From assembly GCA_027371825.1 (NCBI GenBank), contig DAHXLE010000012.1:1179-65178 (forward strand): DNA of 64,000 bases, in the 5' to 3' direction. The translations under genes and the position numbers were made by a program. The DNA is from Candidatus Saccharimonadota bacterium (GTDB taxonomy: Bacteria > Patescibacteriota > Saccharimonadia > Saccharimonadales > UBA4665). Of this stretch, positions 10,682-25,719 are shown piece after piece. Under the pieces are notes generated by a model. The model saw nothing but the letters and a program-made list of their open reading frames with translations, had not been told where the DNA came from and ran no database searches. Position 1 is the first letter of the stretch, and the number at the start of each line of letters is the position of its first letter.

Positions 10682-11180
10682 GAAAGAAAAAACAGTTTTG
10701 AACTTACCTATGCAGGTGATTTCACCGGCAGATGTGAGCAGACTGTCCCGTGAGCTGGAATCGCTGGAGGATTTCATGGAGCAATCCGCCATTCGGACCA
10801 AGGGAGTAGGTTTAAAATTACCGGCATCTTCTAAGCTTTTAGATGAATTAGCTGCTTCTAATTCATTTAATTTTCTTCACATTCAAGACCGTAAACTAGC
10901 CAAGGAGTTTCTAGGGACACTGACTAAAACTGCGCCGGTCATCCATCTCAGTTTTGCGTCCGATCCGTCGGCAGCATTCTTATCAAAACTTGTTTCGCGG
11001 CTTAGAGACATTATTCATCCCCAGCTGTTGGTTCGCACCGGGCTAGAACCGTCGATTGCAGCCGGCTGCATACTAAGAACTAATAATCGTCAATTTGACT
11101 TTAGTCTAAGGACTACCCTGTATGCCAAGTCAGACCTGTTAATGAAGGCCCTTAAATTGAATAGCGAGGGACAAACTTGA
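10671..11180 (+). CDS. atpH: F-type ATPase subunit delta (OSCP)
   Basis: The C-terminal part LVRTGLEPSIAAGCILRTNNRQFDFSLRTTL matches the delta/OSCP C-terminal pattern (..dpsliGG..i..g...iD.S....L). The ORF is open from 10632. A GTG at 10671, preceded by GAGGA, is the more likely start. Confidence 0.7.
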   Translation: MGPKKEKTVLNLPMQVISPADVSRLSRELESLEDFMEQSAIRTKGVGLKLPASSKLLDELAASNSFNFLHIQDRKLAKEFLGTLTKTAPVIHLSFASDPSAAFLSKLVSRLRDIIHPQLLVRTGLEPSIAAGCILRTNNRQFDFSLRTTLYAKSDLLMKALKLNSEGQT

Positions 11181-12636
11181 GCGACAACAGACACTTTGAC
11201 CAGCTAGTAAACAACAATCACCCCATTGGAGAAGTTATCGGGGTGGATAAATTTCTTATAAAACTTAGCGGACTGCAGCCGGTCAATACCCATGCTCTAA
11301 TAATGTTCGAAGATGGCAGCAAAGGTTATGTCCATCATGTTTTGCCGGATTATACTCTTGTGTTTCATATGGGGCGAGTACCTATTAGGGTCGGTATGAC
11401 GGCAGTGGTACAACACGACGCATTGGTTAGTCAGGTGGGTAAAGGATTTGTTGGCAGGATAGTAACGGTTAGCGGTGAGCCGCTTGATGGCAAGGGTCCC
11501 ATAGGCGCCGACGGTGTTTGGCCGGTGTTTGCTCAGGCGCCCATGTTATATAAACGGGAACTTCTGGATACACAGCTTGAGACCGGGGTGGCCATTGTTG
11601 ACAGTCTTTTCCCGCTAGTCAAAGGACAAAGGATAGCGATATTAGGAGACAACAAGTCCGGCAAAACGACCTTAGGTCTTCAGACGGCTATAAACCAAAG
11701 AAATACCGACATGATCGTAGTCTACGTTTTGATAGCTAAACGCCGGAGTGATATTGACGATCTCGTTACTCAGATGCAGGCCAACAATTCTCTGGATAAA
11801 GCGGTCATAGTGGTCTCGACAATGTCGGACTCTTTAGTAATGAGTTTTCTTGCTCCTTATGTCGGATGCTCTATAGCGGAATATCTTTGGCAAATTGTCG
11901 GTCAAGATGTCATGGTGATCTACGATGATCTAACCAGTCACGCTCAGATTTATCGTGAGATGTCGCTTCTATCCGGGGTGAGTCCGGGACGTGATTCCTA
12001 TCCCGGAGATATGTTCTATATCCATTCCCAGTTACTGGAACGAGCGGGTAAGTTGGCGGAAAATCATAAAACACTTACTGCTTTGCCGCTTGTTCTAACT
12101 CCCGGTGGCGACATAACCGGTTTCTTGTCTACCAACCTTATGTCTATAACGGATGGGCAGTGGATACTTGATATGAAGACATTTCGTGACACAGTACGAC
12201 CGGCGCTTAGTGTGCCATTGAGTGTTACCAGAGTTGGCGGTCGAGGTCAAAATAAAAGACAAAAAGTTCAGAGTGCCCAGATACTACAAGCTCTCAGCGC
12301 TTACGCGACGGCCGAACAATACTCACATTTTGGAACCGAAATGGGCGGTAATTTACAGCGCGCCGTAGACAGAGGACATGATCTTTATGAGCTCTTTACT
12401 CAAAAGCCCGGCGAAACTTACAGCCTTCTCGCTCAACAACTGATGCTAGAGGTTTTTCTGGGACTGTCACCGGAAGAAACAATAGATATAACGGCCCTGA
12501 AGGCTAATGCGTCCGTTTATGCTGAAAAACTGGATCCTAATGACGAGAAAGGCTTTCAGGCGGTGTCCGATAAATTGAAAAGTGCGTTTCTTGTCAAGGG
12601 TAATACCAAAAAGCTAACTCCTACCAAAGGACAAGC

Positions 12637-12640
<4 letters not shown>
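11177..12640 (+). CDS. atpA: F-type ATPase subunit alpha (divergent)
   Basis: The Walker A motif is GDNKSGKTT (canonical GDRQTGKT). SPGRDSYPGDMFYIHSQLLERA matches [21 protein letters not shown]. The TTG start overlaps the delta stop as TTGA. Confidence 0.9.
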
Positions 12641-15120
<2,480 letters not shown>

Positions 15121-15124
<4 letters not shown>

Positions 15125-16146
15125 TCCACTGCTATATAGTCAAATACCAGTTGTTCCGACGGTCCGGGCGGAGATGGTGTCTCTATACTGAATCCGCTAG
15201 TGGACCGCGTAATGTAATACGGCGTAACTGCCGCGGCTGAACTTAAGGGCGTGATGACCACATCGGCCGCTGAAGTGAACGGTGTATTAAAAGTTACGTT
15301 TATAAGGGAACCGGCGCCGGGAGAAGTTCCTGTGTTGATGGTGACGGTTCCGGCTGTGTCGGAACCGCTTATAGATACGGTACCGCCTGCGCCTATGGAG
15401 CTACCGGCCACGGCGGTCGCCGAGACTCCGCCAGCTTCTATGTGATGTGTTAGTACCAAGTCGCTGTTAAGAGTTAGGCTCTGAGCACTCAGCTGGTTAA
15501 CGGACAAAGAGCCGCCGAAGCTTCCCGACCCAGAAACGCTGAGATTCTTTCCGACGTTTAACTGTCCTTGGATATTGGTGTCTCCGGAAACGGTCAGTTG
15601 GTTGGCGGCAATCTGATTGAATCCACTTGTTCCGGTAACTGTTATGCCGGGTAGATTCAAACTTCCTCCCACCTTGATTACGCCCGCTACGTTAAGATCT
15701 TGTTTCATGAGTACTTGCCCGCCGAATACCGCCGAAGCACCGACCGTCAATATTTGCGACGAACTGCCTACATTAAGATCGGTCCTCGATAATTTATCCA
15801 ATTCGCTCTGGGTAAGGTTCTGTGTGGAGATAACAGGAGCGGAGTTTTTATGGTTTAAGATAATTGCTGCAATGACTATCGCTACAGCTATAAAGAGTGT
15901 CAGCAAAAACAGCAAAAGGTATTTATTAGGGGCAGGAACCCTGATTCGGTGATGTTTGCCGGTGGGCGGCAATGGACCGACCGGAGGTGACGGAGGTTGT
16001 TGAGGTGGTGACACGGTGAGTATGGGCGACGCCATAGGAGCAGTTACGGTTGTCGGATTTTCGATAACCGTGCTTGGTGTCTCAAGTGAGGTATCAGCCT
16101 CTTCGTTGCGCTGATTTTGATTTATCGGATCCATCCCGAGTAACAT
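15121..16146 (-). CDS. type II membrane protein: Pro-rich cytoplasmic tail, TM, extracellular beta-helix-like repeats, C-terminal lectin-like domain
   Basis: The N-terminal 85 aa are Pro-rich (PPQQPPSPPVGPLPPTG). A TM helix follows (LLLFLLTLFIAVAIVIAAIIL). Degenerate repeats follow that (LNVAGVIKVGGSLNLPGITVTGTSG.., QLTVSGDTNIQGQLNVGKNLSVSGSGSFGGSLSV). The C-terminus is VTFNTPFTSAADVVITP...TSGFSI...FDYIAV. Confidence 0.8.
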
Positions 16147-16419: not shown

Positions 16420-17190
16420 ATGAAACATTGGAGGCATACCATTGGAGTCGTTATTGTTTGCGGCATACTTTTTGCGATCTCTCCCGTAAGCGTTAAAGCC
16501 GATACTTACGCCTCTCCAAATTATCAGATAAATCAGGTATTTGTCGGCAATGGCGGGTCGCTTAGCCTATCCTCGCCAAACTATTCTGCCCAGGCTTCAG
16601 TAGGAGCGCTCGGTGTCGGACACAGCTCCAGTACTAATTTTCAAGCACAAGCAGGCTATGATACTAACCGATCACCCTATCTTGAACTGGGTGTCACCAA
16701 TAGTAGTACAAGTTTGGGCACGCTAAGTAGCTCAACGACAGCTACCGCTACGGCCAAATTCCTCGTCAAGGCATATTTGGCTAATGGCTATGTGGTTCAA
16801 ACCAATAGTCCGCCTCCTTCCAGTGGCAGCCATACACTTCAACCGTTAGCTACGGCAACGGCGTCGGTGGCCGGCCAAGAGCAATTCGGCATGAACCTAG
16901 TGGCCGATACGAATCCTAGCTCACTGAGTACGACAAGTTCGAATCCTGTCCAAAATCCTGATAATACATTTAGTTTCGGAAGCGTTAACCCTGCTACCTG
17001 TGCATCGGTGAGTAGCGGCTATAATATACCCAATGAATATAAGTATGCCGAAGGTGACGTTATAGCAGCTTCTTGTTTAAGCTCCGGTGAAACAGACTAC
17101 ACGATTTCATATATATTTAACGTTAGCAATACGACCCCCGGCGGGCATTACACATTTAATGATGTCATTGTCGCCACAGCTACTTATTAG
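16420..17190 (+). CDS. secreted fibre/pilin-like protein, short paralog (P1)
   Basis: It has a signal peptide (..ISPVSVKA/DT). Three short repeats follow: SPNYQINQVFVGNGG, SPNYSAQASVGALG and STNFQAQAGYD. It shares with P2-P4 the motifs SVAGQEQFGMNLVADTNP and the C-terminal NVSNTTPGGHYTFNDVIVATATY-stop. Confidence 0.85.
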   Translation: MKHWRHTIGVVIVCGILFAISPVSVKADTYASPNYQINQVFVGNGGSLSLSSPNYSAQASVGALGVGHSSSTNFQAQAGYDTNRSPYLELGVTNSSTSLGTLSSSTTATATAKFLVKAYLANGYVVQTNSPPPSSGSHTLQPLATATASVAGQEQFGMNLVADTNPSSLSTTSSNPVQNPDNTFSFGSVNPATCASVSSGYNIPNEYKYAEGDVIAASCLSSGETDYTISYIFNVSNTTPGGHYTFNDVIVATATY

Positions 17191-17199
17191 ATACCGACT

Positions 17200-18372
17200 A
17201 TGCCTATAATCAAAACATCAAAATCCTTAATTATTTTACTAACTGTCTCTGCTGTCACGGCATGGTTTATCGGATTAACTCCTGGGTACGTACTGGCCTA
17301 CTCATTGGCCACCCCGGATTCTATTACTATGACGAGCTCTATGCCTTCTGCGGTGAACGTGTCCTATGCGGTCAGTTTTACCGCAGCAACTACGGCAACT
17401 CTCCAGGGAATAATCGTCGACTTTTGCTCAAACAGTCCGACACTCGGCGACGTGTGTGACGCCCCGGCCGGATTTTCGGTCGGGACACCGATTGTCACCA
17501 ATGAAGCAGGAATAACATCCAGCTGGTCAGCCTCCTCTCTGGACAGCGATAGGACGGTTCTACTGACTTATCCTACCGGTACGGCTATAACCTCCGGCGA
17601 GAACATATCGTTCAACGTAACTACCGTTACTAACCCGTCCGCTGCCAATACTACATACTATGCCCGGATATTAACCTATACATCTTCGACAGTAGCATCG
17701 GCTTATAGTGTCAGCAGTACCTCGTCGAGTATAGGGGATCCAACCGACGCCGGCGGCGTGGCACTTTCTACTAGTAACAGCATAAGCGTTAATTTTGTTA
17801 TACCAGAGTCACTATCTTTTTGTGTATACACCGGGGCTAACTGCGCGGCAGGGGGCAATTCAATAACTCTGGGGGACTCGCACGGCTATCTGTCGGTTAG
17901 CGGCCCGTTTGTCGACAAGTCCGTCAAATATGATATATCGACCAATGCTTCTCATGGAGCGGTTGTTGATCTGCAGGGTAATACTCTCCGTTACGGTGCC
18001 CAGTCAATCCCGGCACTTTCTACGCCGACCGCCAGTGTTGCCGGTACCTCACAGTTTGGGGTATGCACCTATACATCTGCCGGGTCAAGTCTTGTGCCCT
18101 TTGGGGATTATGATGGCAATGCAGGTAGCGGTGGGACGGCCTGCCAAAACGTCGCACAAAGCTCAGGCGGGAGCGGTCCGGGGAGCGGGGGCGGAGTTTT
18201 ATGGTACTTCAATCTAGCACAGATTTCTTCCGCATATGGTGATGAAATTGCCTCGATACCTTCAAGTACCACCAACACGGGTGTTTTGGCCATGATGGCG
18301 AATATTTCCACTACTTTGCCGAGCGGAATTTATACTACCAGTCTTGATCTGTTAGCAACGGGCACCTATTGA
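17200..18372 (+). CDS. secreted fibre/pilin-like protein, two-domain paralog (P2)
   Basis: It has a signal peptide. Its motifs include VDFCSNSPTLGDVCDAPAGFSVGTP, GGVALSTS, SLSFCVYTGANCAAGGNSITLGD and GTSQFGVCTY. The C-terminus is SGIYTTSLDLLATGTY-stop. It has three Cys pairs. Confidence 0.88.
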   Translation: MPIIKTSKSLIILLTVSAVTAWFIGLTPGYVLAYSLATPDSITMTSSMPSAVNVSYAVSFTAATTATLQGIIVDFCSNSPTLGDVCDAPAGFSVGTPIVTNEAGITSSWSASSLDSDRTVLLTYPTGTAITSGENISFNVTTVTNPSAANTTYYARILTYTSSTVASAYSVSSTSSSIGDPTDAGGVALSTSNSISVNFVIPESLSFCVYTGANCAAGGNSITLGDSHGYLSVSGPFVDKSVKYDISTNASHGAVVDLQGNTLRYGAQSIPALSTPTASVAGTSQFGVCTYTSAGSSLVPFGDYDGNAGSGGTACQNVAQSSGGSGPGSGGGVLWYFNLAQISSAYGDEIASIPSSTTNTGVLAMMANISTTLPSGIYTTSLDLLATGTY

Positions 18373-18495
18373 GTTTAGGAGGGTGTGGATAAGTGTATTG
18401 CGAGATATTAATTTTCGTATTAAACTAATGCACAGTTAGGTTTGTTTCACACATAGGTGTCATAATAGATAAAGAACTCCGAAAAAAATAAAACC

Positions 18496-19698
18496 ATGAA
18501 AATTGTTCAGCATTTTAGAAAGATAACGTACATGATAGCCTCGCTGGTGATGCTATCGGGTACGATCAGTTTCATAGGTGCTGAAGCGGTACACGCCTTT
18601 CCTCTATACGGTGAGGTGCAGTCTCGTTCGATCGAAATGAGTACATCCGTGCCGGGGGCTGCGGCCACCTATCACGTTACCTTTACCGTTGCAACTACAG
18701 CCTCGGTCGGTGGAATCGTAGTAGATTTTTGTTCCAACGATCCAATTCTCGGCGATACCTGTACTGCCCCGACGGGTTTAAGCATCGGCACACCAACGGT
18801 TAGCGGTGCCAGTACCAATCTAACAGGTACTTGGACTGCCGCAAAAATTGCCTCTAGTGCGAGTACGCTTGGATATACAACGGCTACACCGGTGGCATTA
18901 ACCGGGGGCACATCGATTGTCTATTTTGACATAACCTCAATGACTAACCCGACGACAACCGGTAGTTTGTACGCCAGGCTGTATACCTTTGATACCGCAA
19001 CCGATGCCGGCAGTTACACTGCAACCGGAGCCGATACGGGGTTGATAGACGGTGGTGGTGTTGCTCTCTCGACAAATCCAACCTTGAATGTTACGGCCAA
19101 AGTGCAGGAAGAGTTAACCTTCTGTATCGATACGAATAGTGCCGCTAACTGTTCGACCGCATCCGGCAATTCCGTGGCTTTAGGTGATAGTCATGGTGTT
19201 TTATCGAGCCAGGGGGCGTACGTAGACAAAACCACGCAATATATCGTACAAACCAATGCCAGTGTCGGTGCGGCGATCAGAATTGAGGGTAATACGCTAT
19301 CGTTTGGATCCAATCAGATTGCTGCTGCATGTTCAGGATCGTGTCCGGGGGCCACTCCGGCTACGTCGGCTGTTGGCACTTCTCAGTTTGGTCTATGCAC
19401 ATATGACTCAGCAGGTGCTGCTACCATAACGGCTGCCGCAACATACAATGGCGGGGCCGCCGGTAAATGTGCCGGTACTACTCAGACTGCCGGTACTACT
19501 ACCCCTGGCGGAGATAACGGCGCATCGTTTGGTCTGAATACGACGCTGACTAGCGGGACATATGGCGACACACTTGCTAATGTGGTAGCCGGTGCTCAGG
19601 CTACCGGCACTTTGGTGTTTCTCGGCAATATATCCGTAACCCAGCCAGCCGGAATCTATACTACTGCTCTCACGCTTGTGGCAACCGGTACATATTAA
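18496..19698 (+). CDS. secreted fibre/pilin-like protein, two-domain paralog (P3)
   Basis: It is collinear with P2. Its motifs include VDFCSNDPILGDTCTAPTGLSIGTP, GGVALSTNP, LTFCIDTNSAANC..VALGD and GTSQFGLCTY. The C-terminus is AGIYTTALTLVATGTY-stop. It is preceded by a 123-nt gap containing a CATAAT hexamer. Confidence 0.88.
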   Translation: MKIVQHFRKITYMIASLVMLSGTISFIGAEAVHAFPLYGEVQSRSIEMSTSVPGAAATYHVTFTVATTASVGGIVVDFCSNDPILGDTCTAPTGLSIGTPTVSGASTNLTGTWTAAKIASSASTLGYTTATPVALTGGTSIVYFDITSMTNPTTTGSLYARLYTFDTATDAGSYTATGADTGLIDGGGVALSTNPTLNVTAKVQEELTFCIDTNSAANCSTASGNSVALGDSHGVLSSQGAYVDKTTQYIVQTNASVGAAIRIEGNTLSFGSNQIAAACSGSCPGATPATSAVGTSQFGLCTYDSAGAATITAAATYNGGAAGKCAGTTQTAGTTTPGGDNGASFGLNTTLTSGTYGDTLANVVAGAQATGTLVFLGNISVTQPAGIYTTALTLVATGTY

Positions 19699-19710
19699 GG
19701 GACATCCTTT

Positions 19711-20787
19711 GTGCGACACGCACTACGTCGATTTTCGATAAAGTTTTTAACGGCAATTAGTCTTTTGCTGATTTCGACCGTTTCGACACTGCTGATTAAT
19801 ACTCCCGGTGTATATGCCACTACATTGTATGTATCGAATCGTACCGATGAACTATCGACCTCGACAGTGAGTGCTACGGCAACCCATATAATCTCATTTG
19901 CAATGACCGACACCACGGATCCTTTAGGTTCGATCAGACTTGAATTTTGTTCCAATGATCCGATTCCTGAAGACAGCTGTGTTGCGCCGGCAGGGTTAAA
20001 TCTATTGGGTGCATCGCTCGGGAGCCAAAGCGGCAATACGGGCTTTGTAATAGCCACCGCGACCGCGAATGAAATATTGCTGAGCAGGTCATCAGATCAG
20101 GTACCAAACAGCAGTCTTAATAGTTATCAGATAATTAATGCCATTAATCCATCATATTTAGGTACATTTTATCTTCGCCTGTATACCTATTCGTCGATCG
20201 ATGGCAGCGGTACTCAAACAGAAGAAGGGGGCATAGCCCTTAGCACAAATACCGGTGTCAATGTTACGGCCCAAGTACCCCCCTATTTGGGTTTTTGTGC
20301 CGGCGCAACAATCACCGGACATGATTGTTCTTCCGTCTCGGGGTATTACCTGAACTTCGGTGATTTCAGTAGCCTGAAGCCGTCTGTAGCTACTTCACAG
20401 TTTAGCGTAGGCACTAATGCCGGTAACGGCTATAATGTTACAATCAACGGAAGCACCCTAACTTCCGGTAATAATGTTATTCCGGCCCTTGCCAACCCAA
20501 GTCCGTCAATTGCCGGAACAAGCGAGTTTGGTATAAATTTGGTTGCCAATACTTCGCCTTTGTCGGGAAGTAATCCTGTCGGACCTTCAGATGTCGATGG
20601 TCGGGTAATGCCGCCCTACAATGTACCCAACGAGTTTTTGTTTAATACCGGGGGTGTAGTCGTCAGTTCAATAACCAGTAGCAACTATCAAATATTTACC
20701 ACCACCTACCTCGCCAATGTTAGTAATAGCCAGGCTGCAGGAGTTTATACCTCGACCATAACTTATGTTTGCCTAGCTAATTTTTAA
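19711..20787 (+). CDS. secreted fibre/pilin-like protein, two-domain paralog (P4)
   Basis: It starts at a GTG after AAGGGA. Its motifs include LEFCSNDPIPEDSCVAPAGLNLLG, GGIALSTNTGVNVTAQV, LGFCAGATITGHDC..YYLNFGD and GTSEFGINLVANTSP. It shares YNVPNEF with P1. The C-terminus is AGVYTSTITYVCLANF-stop. Confidence 0.88.
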   Translation: MRHALRRFSIKFLTAISLLLISTVSTLLINTPGVYATTLYVSNRTDELSTSTVSATATHIISFAMTDTTDPLGSIRLEFCSNDPIPEDSCVAPAGLNLLGASLGSQSGNTGFVIATATANEILLSRSSDQVPNSSLNSYQIINAINPSYLGTFYLRLYTYSSIDGSGTQTEEGGIALSTNTGVNVTAQVPPYLGFCAGATITGHDCSSVSGYYLNFGDFSSLKPSVATSQFSVGTNAGNGYNVTINGSTLTSGNNVIPALANPSPSIAGTSEFGINLVANTSPLSGSNPVGPSDVDGRVMPPYNVPNEFLFNTGGVVVSSITSSNYQIFTTTYLANVSNSQAAGVYTSTITYVCLANF

Positions 20788-20811
20788 TGAGATAGTGTTA
20801 TAATAACGCAT

Positions 20812-21891: not shown

Positions 21892-22809
21892 ATGAACAGT
21901 CGCAGCAGTGCCGTAGAACTAAAACGCCGTCTTAGGCTATTCTTCGCTGCGCTATTTGCTGCTTGTATTGTCAGCTTGGGCGGGTATTATTCGAGCGCTT
22001 CGGCTCTCAGTATGACCCAGAATGGCTCGATTGGGTTGCAGGGTACGGTCAGCTCACCGCCACCAACCACGCCGGCTAATATTACTACACCAGGCAACGG
22101 ACAAGTTCTAACAAACGGTCTAGTGACGGTTGGGGGTCAGTGCACTAATGGTTTGTTAGTGGAAGTTTTTTCAAATAATGTCTTTGCCGGGTCGACAAAA
22201 TGTAGCGGAGGAACATTCAGCATACAGGCCAGCTTGTTTAACGGCACCAACCAACTGGATGCTAAAGTGTATGATGCTCTAGGCCAATCTGGTCCTAATT
22301 CAAATACCCCGATAGTGCAATATAGTAGTGCTAAATTTTCTTCTCTAGGGCCTTTATTGACCTTGTCAAGCATCTATGCGACGCAAGGAATCAATCCAGG
22401 CAATCTTCTAAGTTGGCCGATTACTATATCCGGTGGCTCTGAGCCTTACAGTTTGAGTATAAACTGGGGTGACGGTACGCCGCCACAGTCCCAATCGGCT
22501 CCGTTTTTCGGAAATGTTATGCTCTCTCATACGTATCAAAATGCCGGTACGTATAATATCAGCGTTAAAGCCACCGACGTAAATGGTGAAGTTGCATTCC
22601 TGCAAATGGTCGGGGTGGCCAACGGAGCTGTACCGCAATCTGCGTCGACGACAAATAACAGTCAACCAACAAGCAATACCGCTTATCTGGAATGGTGGCC
22701 CGCTATGGTAATACTGCCTTTGTTGCTGGTGGCATTCTGGCTTGGCGGTGCCCATAGGATTACCTCTTTAAAAAAGAAATTGGATAACGGTAACGACAAT
22801 CTCAAATAG
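21892..22809 (+). CDS. surface protein with Ig-like and PKD domains and a C-terminal TM anchor
   Basis: It has an N-terminal signal or anchor. The Ig-like segment runs ITTPGNGQVLTNGLVTVGGQC...GTNQLDAKVYDALGQSG. The PKD signature is INWGDGTPPQ...HTYQNAGTYNISVKATDVNGE. The C-terminal TM helix is WWPAMVILPLLLVAFWLGG. Confidence 0.85.
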   Translation: MNSRSSAVELKRRLRLFFAALFAACIVSLGGYYSSASALSMTQNGSIGLQGTVSSPPPTTPANITTPGNGQVLTNGLVTVGGQCTNGLLVEVFSNNVFAGSTKCSGGTFSIQASLFNGTNQLDAKVYDALGQSGPNSNTPIVQYSSAKFSSLGPLLTLSSIYATQGINPGNLLSWPITISGGSEPYSLSINWGDGTPPQSQSAPFFGNVMLSHTYQNAGTYNISVKATDVNGEVAFLQMVGVANGAVPQSASTTNNSQPTSNTAYLEWWPAMVILPLLLVAFWLGGAHRITSLKKKLDNGNDNLK

Positions 22810-24135: not shown

Positions 24136-25719
24136 ATGCCCAAAGTACAAAGTAAAAAACGATTATCTATTGTTAACGCCGCAACTCTCTTGATAGGTTC
24201 CGCTATGCTGGGACAAATATTGGGTCTATTTAGGACGCGCTTGGTCAACGCCAATTTTCCCGCCAAAGGACCGGGTAGTACCGATGCTTACTTTGCTGCT
24301 TTTAATATCCCGGATTTTTTCTTTTTCACTTTAGCCGCAGGTGCTTTAGGCGTAGCTTTTATGCCGGTACTCGCGGATCGTCTTCACAAAGGAGACAAGC
24401 GTGGGATGTGGGACATATCTACCAGTCTACTGAACTTGTTAATGTTGGTGATGGCAGTTGTGGGGGTTCTAATGTTCGTTTTCGCGGAACCGCTAGTCCA
24501 TTACATTATTTCTCCCAACTTAACACCGACTCAACTGCATAATACCGTCACAATAATGAGATATATTTCCTTCGATCCTTTGCTGTTTACTATTTCCGGT
24601 GTTCTTACCGCCGTACAACAGACTCTCGGGCGGTTTTTCTTCTATGCACTTGCTCCTCTTTTATATAACTTCTGTATTATCGCCAGTATCTATATTTTTA
24701 GGCACAACATAGGTCTGACGGGGCTGGGAATCGGAGCTTTGGTTGGTGCCATTTTACAGCTGGTCGTTATCTCAATGGGTCTTTTCGGTACTCATTTTCA
24801 TTGGAATCCAAAAATATTGTGGAGAAGCTCGGAGTTTCGGACGATTCTACGCCAGCTACCTCCTAGATCGCTAGACCAAGGAATTGATCAGGTGGAGTCG
24901 ATCGTAGAGACTCATTTTGCCCGTCGATTAGGTTCAGGATTTATTAGTTACTACAATAACGCCTATACGATGAGTACCGCCCCGGCCTTGTTGATCGGCA
25001 CCGCCATCAGTACCGCAGCATTTCCTCATCTTAACAATCGCTTGTCACAAGGGCGCCCCGATTTATTCCGCAAAGAGTTCCTTCAGATCGTCCGTTTTAT
25101 GATATGGATATCTATGCCGGTGGTGGTGCTTTGTTACTTTACTCGCGGTTATCTGGCACGCCTAATATATGCCAATAATGCCCCGGAAATAGCTTTGATC
25201 TTTGGTTCATTAGCGCTTTCAATCTTTTTCACTACTCTTTACACCATAATCTCAAGGTGGTTCTATTCCCATAAAGACACCAAGACTCCTCTATTTGTTT
25301 CTGTCTTTACCATCTTTTTTGACATAGTCCTGGTTTCTATTTTGGCCCGTCCTACCGTGTATGGTGTCAGCGGACTTGCCATAACCCAGTCTATAGTAGC
25401 TATGGTCGAGGTACTCATTTTATCCGTCATTATGCTTATTAGGGACCACAAGCTTTTTGATGTGAACTTCTGGGCTAATGTCGGTCGAATCATATCGGTT
25501 ACCGGCTTTAGTATGGTAACGGGATATATTATGGTGTCGTTATTGCCGCTAGAGGCAGCCGATAGGGGTATCGTTACGCTTGGAAGCAAACTTTCTCTAA
25601 TCGTGGGAGTCACTATGGTGGTGCATATAGGCGTCTCATACCTATTCGAACTCAGTGAAGTCCAACCAATTTTCAATCGCTTACGCAAAATCCTAAAACC
25701 GACCAAACCCTTGTACTGA
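24136..25719 (+). CDS. murJ: lipid II flippase MurJ/MviN
   Basis: It is a 527-aa polytopic protein. The N-terminus AATLLIGSAMLGQILGLFRTRLV..DAYFAAFNIPDFFF is typical of MurJ. Confidence 0.88.
   Translation: MPKVQSKKRLSIVNAATLLIGSAMLGQILGLFRTRLVNANFPAKGPGSTDAYFAAFNIPDFFFFTLAAGALGVAFMPVLADRLHKGDKRGMWDISTSLLNLLMLVMAVVGVLMFVFAEPLVHYIISPNLTPTQLHNTVTIMRYISFDPLLFTISGVLTAVQQTLGRFFFYALAPLLYNFCIIASIYIFRHNIGLTGLGIGALVGAILQLVVISMGLFGTHFHWNPKILWRSSEFRTILRQLPPRSLDQGIDQVESIVETHFARRLGSGFISYYNNAYTMSTAPALLIGTAISTAAFPHLNNRLSQGRPDLFRKEFLQIVRFMIWISMPVVVLCYFTRGYLARLIYANNAPEIALIFGSLALSIFFTTLYTIISRWFYSHKDTKTPLFVSVFTIFFDIVLVSILARPTVYGVSGLAITQSIVAMVEVLILSVIMLIRDHKLFDVNFWANVGRIISVTGFSMVTGYIMVSLLPLEAADRGIVTLGSKLSLIVGVTMVVHIGVSYLFELSEVQPIFNRLRKILKPTKPLY

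Follow-up and report, generated by a model that had tools for sequence, protein, structure and literature searches.

What do four tandem genes for secreted, cysteine-containing proteins build on the surface of an uncultivated Saccharibacterium? The genes lie in a stretch of 64,000 nucleotides (hereafter, the window) from a Candidatus Saccharimonadota bacterium (GenBank assembly GCA_027371825.1, contig DAHXLE010000012.1, positions 1,179 to 65,178, forward strand). A first-pass annotation had proposed that they, together with a fifth gene, encode a pilin-like surface fibre of a kind undescribed in a monoderm of the Candidate Phyla Radiation (CPR). Our analyses indicate, with high confidence, that these genes belong to a Pam pilus operon, whose structural core this region forms, in a member of the class Saccharimonadia. 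The Pam pilus is a thin donor-strand-exchange surface fibre of ultrasmall, parasitic CPR bacteria; it was already described in 2026, in a preprint and in NCBIfam models, so the novelty claim does not stand, and the copy in the window is orthologous to it. Here, we refer to the six genes of the operon as P1 to P6 (Table 1).

The identification draws on three models in NCBIfam release 20 (NF058578, NF058579 and NF058581), which trace to Troman et al. (bioRxiv 10.64898/2026.03.03.709456). P1 scored 275.4 bits on NF058579 (CPR_pilus_PamT; cut-off 240) and P6 scored 349.4 bits on NF058578 (CPR_pilus_PamR; cut-off 300), a model that all 60 P6 orthologues tested also match. Because these equivalog scores exceed the curated cut-offs, we identify P1 as PamT and P6 as PamR. 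The model for the Pam pilin C-terminal domain (NF058581; cut-off 55 bits) was matched by P1 (149.9 bits), P2 (71.2) and P4 (150.7). P3 stays just short of the cut-off, and given its 40% identity to P2 across the whole protein we assign the domain to all four proteins. The NCBIfam Pam chaperone models gave no match to P5 at E<=1.

The reference system comes from Candidatus Mycosynbacter amalyticus, from which Troman et al. isolated thin filaments and solved them by cryo-electron microscopy (cryo-EM) at 2.8 and 3.6 Å (10.64898/2026.03.03.709456). The pilins, PamA and PamB, are two-domain proteins with paired cysteines that polymerise by donor-strand exchange: each subunit's C-terminal domain takes up the linker of the subunit next to it. 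In Pam pilins, conservation is highest in this donated linker and at the site where it binds. The same study describes PamE, a third two-domain pilin of the operon; PamT, which is made up of just the C-terminal domain and is proposed as the tip; PamC and PamD, which are PapD/FimC-like chaperones bearing a transmembrane helix at the C-terminus; and PamR, an RbmA-like protein with a transmembrane helix, whose N-terminal strand is proposed to insert into PamE and anchor the fibre. Its conserved pam neighbours are ATP synthase genes and a central "tail fibre-like" gene, and its accession series gives the gene order PamT-PamA-PamE-PamD-PamR-PamB...PamC. The proposal that the proteins form a surface fibre in the manner of chaperone-usher pilins is borne out in the orthologous PamA/PamB filaments, for which filament formation and donor-strand exchange were demonstrated; the window proteins would be expected to behave likewise by analogy.

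By position, we infer that P4 corresponds to PamE and P5 to PamD, with P2 and P3 in the PamA slot. P2 and P3 (390 and 400 aa) are PamB-sized (38.7 kDa) rather than PamA-sized (55.3 kDa). The window and M. amalyticus share the parts list, domain architectures, Sec signals, paired cysteines, conserved linker, transmembrane-anchored chaperone, transmembrane-anchored RbmA-like PamR, and ATP synthase and tail-fibre-like neighbours. What sets the window apart is a single chaperone, against two in M. amalyticus, the lack of a ~55-kDa PamA-sized pilin (PamB-sized P2 and P3 occupy the PamA position), and the absence of any pilin or chaperone downstream of PamR.

Table 1. Features of the Pam pilus operon and its surroundings (window positions; aa, amino acids; nt, nucleotides)
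Feature	Position	Strand	Description
P1 (PamT)	16420-17190	+	256 aa; single-domain, proposed tip subunit
P2	17200-18372	+	390 aa; two-domain putative shaft pilin of PamA/PamB class
P3	18496-19698	+	400 aa; second two-domain putative shaft pilin, paralogue of P2
P4	19711-20787	+	358 aa; GTG start; single-copy two-domain pilin in PamE position
P5	20812-21801	+	Membrane-anchored two-Ig-domain putative assembly chaperone, PamC/PamD class (AlphaFold2, Foldseek, hhalign)
P6 (PamR)	21892-22809	+	RbmA-like, proposed anchor/terminator (NF058578)
Divergent membrane-anchored protein	15121-16146	-	341 aa (synteny; weak Bactofilin match)
atpA, atpG, atpD, atpC	11177-15124		Upstream of the Pam operon
P2 linker, GGVALST	17752-17772		aa 185-191
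P3 linker, GGVALST	19054-19074		aa 187-193
P4 linker, GGIALST	20227-20247		aa 173-179

As first read, P1 to P4 are four consecutive plus-strand genes; their coordinates and lengths are exact, and in ENA the source contig (ERZ27237304, k141_727824, 87.7 kb) carries identical gene calls. Along their full length, P2 and P3 share 40% identity (E 4e-75 by blastp), P3 matches P4 (E 1e-36), and P2 matches P4 (E 2e-23). P1 matches P4 over its C-terminal ~147 aa (37% identity, E 1e-18) and is weakly similar to P2 (E 7e-4) and to P3 (E 5e-3). A P4-family profile recovers P3 (1e-47, both domains), P2 (4e-40) and P1 (4.5e-25, C-terminal domain only), with no further match among the proteins of the window, and the PamT and P4 families align with an hhalign probability of 99.9% (E 2e-32, 159 columns). 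On sequence comparison, then, P1 to P4 are true paralogues, related far beyond chance. Every motif that had been quoted for them is present and collinear: (V/L)(D/E)FCSN(S/D)P, GG(V/I)ALST and FC...C...GD in P2 to P4, and (A/V)G(T/Q)(S/E)(Q/E)FG and N(I/V)S...G.YT...(Y/F)-stop in all four. The signal peptides, as judged by eye from the residues, each show a basic n-region, a hydrophobic core and an A-x-A-like site, and the AlphaFold2 (AF2) model of P4 has an N-terminal helix at residues 2-29. The reported richness in Thr, Ser, Gly and Ala also holds (combined fraction 0.42-0.53).

The cysteines had been described as paired, and most are: P1 has a 194/219 pair, P2 three pairs, P3 four, and P4 the pairs 80/90 and 196/206, all four of whose residues are invariant across 62 P4 orthologues. 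The description fails for one additional cysteine within the P1 signal peptide and for C354 of P4, which is unpaired. Cys354 (window 20770-20772) sits in the last beta strand (...YVCLANF). Most of the P4 family has cysteine at this position (consensus ICLANF), and P1 to P3 lack it; as a conserved, unpaired, extracellular residue, it might form an intermolecular bond. The four proteins end in ...ATATY (P1), ...ATGTY (P2 and P3) and ...CLANF (P4), with no LPXTG motif and no hydrophobic tail at these C-termini. Pfam and PADLOC scans of P1 to P4 yielded no matches. Across the P4 family, 18 of 62 members have sub-threshold matches to PF10989 (DUF2808; best E 1.7e-4), which fall in the N-terminal domain (aa ~110-160) around an NPS..G.YY.R..TY motif and may point to a distant non-CPR relative of the P4 N-terminal sandwich.

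The P4 model (62 orthologues; predicted local distance difference test [pLDDT] score 93.2) comprises a beta-sandwich (residues 42-178) and a second beta domain (193-356), and confidence is lower in the linker (residues 181-190); P2 and P3 align with the P4 family over both domains. The linker is among the best-conserved stretches both in 94 P2/P3-type sequences, where it reads DAGGVALST at frequencies of 0.8-0.9, and in 74 P4-type sequences; this fits the preprint, in which conservation peaks in the donated linker and the site that binds it. The first-pass annotation had singled out the C-terminal strand as the pilin-like element; this reading was misplaced, as the donated strand in the solved homologues is the inter-domain linker. 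By analogy, the GG(V/I)ALST linker is probably the donor strand of P2 to P4 and the C-terminal domain the acceptor. In P1, the signal peptide is followed by an N-terminal segment of ~60 aa that contains an FG.GG.L motif, and then by the Pam C-terminal domain (~85-256); in PamT, this motif stands ~40 residues upstream of the acceptor domain.

At the other end of the operon, P6 combines a signal peptide and a conserved mature N-terminus with two Ig/PKD-like domains (with a PKD Pfam match) and a C-terminal transmembrane helix (aa 268-286). The mature N-terminus reads NGSIGLQGTV (aa 44-53, nt 22021-22050; consensus SGSVGLEGTISSPPP across 71 sequences), and its G-[GS]-[VI]-x-L motif resembles the pilin linker. 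Such a linker-like N-terminus is what the preprint's model of PamR insertion into PamE requires, as far as a resemblance between sequences can indicate. As a separate observation, nine PamR orthologues out of 60 have a weak match to NF053819 (EF2685/EF0750 sortase-dependent surface proteins; best E 6.7e-5), well below the 47-bit cut-off; it falls in aa 12-64, covering the signal peptide and mature N-terminus. NF053819 describes small LPXTG proteins of enterococcal WxL loci.

Several observations weigh against the identification as a Pam pilus operon. P3 scored 54.3 bits on NF058581, 0.7 under the cut-off, and P2 and P3 were placed in the PamA/PamB class, and P4 with PamE, by size, position and the NCBIfam domain model alone. 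Full-length Foldseek searches with the P4 model returned only generic two-Ig adhesins (ClfA/B, SdrD, integrins, PapG; TM-scores ~0.2). The preprint itself derives the roles of the chaperones and PamR from AlphaFold (10.64898/2026.03.03.709456), and a consensus promoter and terminator scan of the window performed no better than on shuffled sequence. Sequence searches of the PDB with P4, PamT-profile and WxL-profile queries found nothing relevant, in copies that lack the PamA/PamB entries 25PZ and 25QA, and tblastn of P1 and P4 against a plasmid collection gave no match.

What is established here (the paralogy of the pilins, the families and domain architecture of the proteins, the fold and homology of the chaperone, and the synteny) can be combined with the M. 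amalyticus structures into a working model of assembly. All six products would be exported by Sec. P1 (PamT), with an acceptor domain only, would form the tip; P2 and P3, each with an N-terminal beta-sandwich, the linker and a C-terminal truncated Ig-like acceptor domain, would form the shaft; and P4 would sit at the cell-proximal end, in the PamE position, as the proximal adaptor. P5, held in the cytoplasmic membrane by its C-terminal helix, would cap the open groove of each new subunit with a strand of its own until the linker of the incoming subunit displaces this strand from the previous subunit's groove and the fibre grows. Membrane-anchored PamR may then give its linker-like N-terminal strand to the last pilin, ending growth and tethering the fibre. 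Assembly would proceed without an usher and without an outer membrane. The likely role of the fibre is long-reach contact with a host cell, in line with the role proposed for Pam pili and with the earlier suggestion of host attachment.

The fifth gene, for the chaperone P5, had rightly been counted as part of the module. The AF2 model of P5 (60 orthologues; pLDDT 88.5, predicted template-modelling score 0.78) has two beta-sandwich domains and a transmembrane helix (aa 296-325). The top Foldseek matches are 9i1y_A and 9i25_C (E 4e-11), the free and long-WxL-bound crystal structures of EfmWxLIP1, a WxL-interacting protein (WxLIP) of Enterococcus faecium; RbmA comes next, followed by the chaperone-usher proteins CfaA, CsuC and EcpB (E 1e-9 to 1e-6). 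P5 itself scores 22.1 bits on PF06030 (DUF916), below the gathering score of 27.3, and 58 of 60 orthologues match this family at E<=0.01 (best E 1e-9); several carry the NCBI names DUF916 or "WxL protein peptidoglycan domain-containing." PF11797 (DUF3324) had no match in the 60 orthologues, and the PapD Pfam family had none in P5 or its orthologues. In the plasmid collection, the best tblastn match of P5 is a DUF916 protein of Paenibacillus urinalis, whose gene lies directly upstream of genes for two WxL proteins, one small and the other a large RCC1-WxL protein. The P5 family and the Paenibacillus WxLIP align over both domains (hhalign 96%, E 4.5e-9, 219 columns). Altogether, this demonstrates that the Pam chaperone is homologous to the WxLIP (DUF916) of Firmicutes, a finding new beyond the preprint, in which neither "WxL" nor "DUF916" occurs (10.64898/2026.03.03.709456). 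A literature search found no paper linking Saccharibacteria with WxL, or WxL with filaments.

Firmicute WxL clusters encode a small WxL-only protein, large proteins with a C-terminal WxL domain, a transmembrane-anchored two-Ig protein (the WxLIP, DUF916-DUF3324-TM) and an LPXTG protein, and AF2 predicts that a WxLIP hairpin inserts into WxL and completes its sandwich (PMC10599100, PMC9772566). Domain 1 of P5 ends in a long, highly conserved strand, NVGLTASVGTLFLVTVPGNL (aa 158-177), which comes after a low-confidence loop; the strand is positioned like the donated G1 strand of PapD-type chaperones and like the WxLIP hairpin, to which it may be analogous. Through the chaperone-WxLIP link, a CPR organelle is tied to a surface system that is widespread among Gram-positive commensals and pathogens but poorly understood, and for which the link suggests an assembly mechanism that can be tested.

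How far the link extends beyond the chaperone is less clear-cut. The Csc/WxL likeness noted in the first-pass annotation is right for P5; it does not carry over to the pilins as PF13731 membership. The two systems share P5-WxLIP homology across both Ig domains, a C-terminal transmembrane helix, one domain-only protein beside larger proteins carrying that domain C-terminally, and a transmembrane-anchored partner whose strand is predicted to complete the subunit beta-sandwich. They differ in that P5 orthologues lack a PF11797 match, the Pam cluster has no LPXTG protein, with a transmembrane anchor on PamR instead, and the Pam subunits lack W-x-L motifs, PF13731 membership and significant profile-profile similarity to WxL. 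PF13731 had no match at E<=10 in 116 Pam proteins, in which W-x-L motifs are absent. Two WxL profiles were made, a narrow one with 19 Paenibacillus homologues and a broad one with the 293 matches of a search through 1.84 billion representative proteins. Against the Pam families, the narrow profile aligned signal peptides only in hhalign; against the PamT and P4 families, the broad one aligned just two stretches, "GGxL" towards the N-terminus (53% over 7 columns) and the C-terminal hairpin (11% over 44 columns). When the profiles were combined and trimmed (201 Pam and 157 WxL sequences), the score was 26.9 (P 9e-4, 22% probability), driven by the C-terminal hairpin. This score was reached by none of 150 shuffles of 12-column blocks (z 3.0), with reversed decoys at ~10, and by 16 of 150 shuffles of 25-column blocks; in global mode the real pair fell below the decoys. 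Cross searches between hidden Markov models (HMMs) and sequences were not significant, and the 9i25 long-WxL chain was not among the top 50 Foldseek matches of P4. An end-to-end collinear Pam-WxL match seen by eye was rejected as unproven, given the 25-column-shuffle and global-mode failures.

We regard a common origin, in which an ancient donor-strand system of monoderms gave rise to both Pam pili and the WxL/Csc clusters of Firmicutes, as possible and tentative, with the balance tilted against it. In its fuller form, the Pam C-terminal domain would be a WxL-type domain that has lost its tryptophans; the counterpart of the small WxL protein would be PamT, that of the large WxL proteins the two-domain pilins, and that of a CscD/ElrB-type anchor PamR. 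If true, Pam pili would not be a CPR-only invention at the system level, and WxL proteins of enterococci, listeriae and lactobacilli may likewise be assembled or tethered by donor-strand complementation or exchange, instead of simply binding peptidoglycan. On the WxL side, the small WxL proteins on P. urinalis plasmid NZ_CP118110.1 (7908-12840) lack the second tryptophan (C-terminus ...AGTY.S.FTYTATSGI), showing that the WxL family already has members without part of the W-x-L signature.

The same homology invites a reading without a pilus, in which P1 to P4 form a WxL/Csc-type surface complex, wall-associated, singly stabilised by P5 in the way put forward for Firmicute WxL clusters and each completed by one P5 strand, with no polymerisation. 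The WxLIP homology of P5, the parallel cluster layout (PMC10599100; Paenibacillus locus L001), the local hhalign alignment of the Pam C-terminal domain with the WxL domain (P~1e-3) and the weak EF2685/EF0750 matches of 9 of 60 PamR orthologues all speak for it. We nevertheless consider it improbable: the orthologous PamA and PamB form long filaments by cryo-EM, none of the 116 Pam proteins has a PF13731 match or W-x-L motif, and the combined-profile alignment reaches only 22%, with failures in global mode, in 25-column shuffles and in cross HMM searches. The two readings are also not mutually exclusive, as WxL clusters could use donor-strand chemistry too.

Even less credible is that P1 to P4 are monomeric MSCRAMM-like or S-layer-like adhesins, tandem duplicates with two Ig domains that do not polymerise. 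The top Foldseek matches of P4 are indeed ClfA, ClfB, SdrD, FnBPA, Cna and Als (E 3e-6 to 1e-3), and the high Ser/Thr/Gly/Ala content is in keeping with such proteins; however, TM-scores of only ~0.2 reflect generic tandem Ig domains. There is no LPXTG, sortase or wall-spanning repeat, and a terminal beta strand with a final aromatic residue is conserved. Chaperone-like and anchor-like partners are strictly co-conserved, and the family-defining NCBIfam models derive from a filament system.

An archaic chaperone-usher (Csu) pilus, the spore coat protein U (SCPU) family to which the C-termini had been likened, is effectively refuted as a matter of membership and highly improbable in any form. 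P1 to P4 have no PF05229 match at E<=1, nor do any of 54 PamT orthologues; a single SCPU match among 62 P4 orthologues (E 0.16), C-termini superficially like that of CsuA/B, and P5 Foldseek matches that include CsuC-CsuA/B and CsuC-CsuE complexes (E ~3e-8) are what favours it. All open reading frames (ORFs) between atpC and mnmA are assigned and none has the size or type of an usher, Saccharibacteria are monoderm and so offer no outer membrane for an usher, and the chaperone is transmembrane-anchored and groups by sequence with DUF916, not PapD. Pam subunits also have two domains and an internal donor strand, whereas Csu pilins use an N-terminal extension. More generally, Pam pili resemble chaperone-usher pili (Pap/Fim, CFA/I, Csu) in having Ig-like subunits whose open groove is filled by a neighbour (PamA/PamB), a two-Ig-domain chaperone fold, and tip, shaft, adaptor and terminator subunits in one operon. 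They differ in lacking an usher and outer membrane, in anchoring the chaperone to the membrane, in two-domain subunits with an internal-linker donor strand, and in a fibre that is extended, not coiled; no PapD, fimbrial or SCPU Pfam match was established in the Pam proteins scanned. Sortase-assembled Gram-positive pili (P1 to P4 lack LPXTG and the operon has no sortase ORF), a TasA/camelysin fibre (no family match or defining motif) and a defence system (no PADLOC match) were rejected.

We surveyed the gene module across genomes, as the first-pass annotation had proposed. A P5-family scan of GTDB species representatives found 218 loci, of which we fetched the best 80, called ORFs and compared these with the window proteins by blastp; M. 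amalyticus lies outside the 80. Nearly all fetched loci are labelled Saccharibacteria or Saccharimonadales. The closest among these best 80 of 218 has 64% identity, indicating that the window's own genome is not among the GTDB representatives. Almost all loci of sufficient length show the gene order of the window. Synteny is conserved in 54 complete Saccharibacteria loci, with the recurrent order atpA/D/C, divergent 341-aa gene, PamT, shaft pilins, P4-type pilin, chaperone, PamR and mnmA; PamT is the first gene of the operon in at least 53 loci. The module is thus larger than the 4+1 genes originally described, as it also includes PamR and the conserved divergent gene.

Copy number differs along this order. 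P2/P3-type pilins occur once in 30 of the 54 loci, twice in 19, three to five times in 4 and not at all in 1. The P4-type pilin is present in exactly one copy in 52 of 54, always directly upstream of the chaperone, which is itself single in 49 loci and double in 5. In its common form, the operon thus encodes one chaperone together with one or two shaft pilins of PamB size, and the window is an example with two shaft pilins and one chaperone. Shaft pilins are variable in copy number and faster-diverging, and the P4-type pilin, chaperone and PamR are fixed; a variable shaft on a fixed base is as expected if the shaft faces the host. This organisation, the donor-like motif at the PamR N-terminus and the chaperone-WxLIP homology are what remains of particular interest in the locus. 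Pam pili rank second and ninth in protein abundance in the single cultivated organism that has been studied, and they are a candidate first-contact organelle of parasitic or epibiotic CPR bacteria. As the operon is recognisable in raw sequence, it could be annotated across thousands of Saccharibacteria metagenome-assembled genomes.

Some loci depart from the common form. Two chaperones interleaved with pilins were seen in L039, L040, L041, L043, L047 and L070, for example in the order PamT-pilin-chaperone-pilin-P4-chaperone-pilin-PamR, which is nearer the M. amalyticus layout than that of the window. Two pilin-class ORFs are unusually long (P2-type, 939 aa, in L052; PamT-type, 533 aa, in L079); these may be fusions or carry extra N-terminal domains, recalling the "large WxL" architecture.

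Within the window, the gaps between P1 and P5 are short (9 nt at 17191-17199, 12 at 19699-19710 and 24 at 20788-20811) apart from that between P2 and P3 (123 nt at 18373-18495), the only one with room for a regulatory element. Downstream of PamR lie, in order, mnmA, MurJ (24136-25719), PadR, LepA and AlaRS. These neighbours (atp genes on one side, mnmA to AlaRS on the other) place the Pam operon in the core chromosome. The divergent 341-aa protein has a Pro-rich N-terminus, one transmembrane segment and a repetitive Gly/Ser/Thr-rich beta ectodomain, and its sole Pfam match is a weak one to Bactofilin (E 0.0055). It has 56 orthologues (median 46% identity), which keep the same position and orientation beside PamT in most loci fetched, and it presumably corresponds to the "tail fibre-like" pam neighbour. 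Finally, about a dozen genomes (L024, L028, L056-L058, L061, L065, L072, L073, L076 and L078) carry a second, larger PamR-like gene (331-386 aa) downstream of mnmA, where the window has MurJ.

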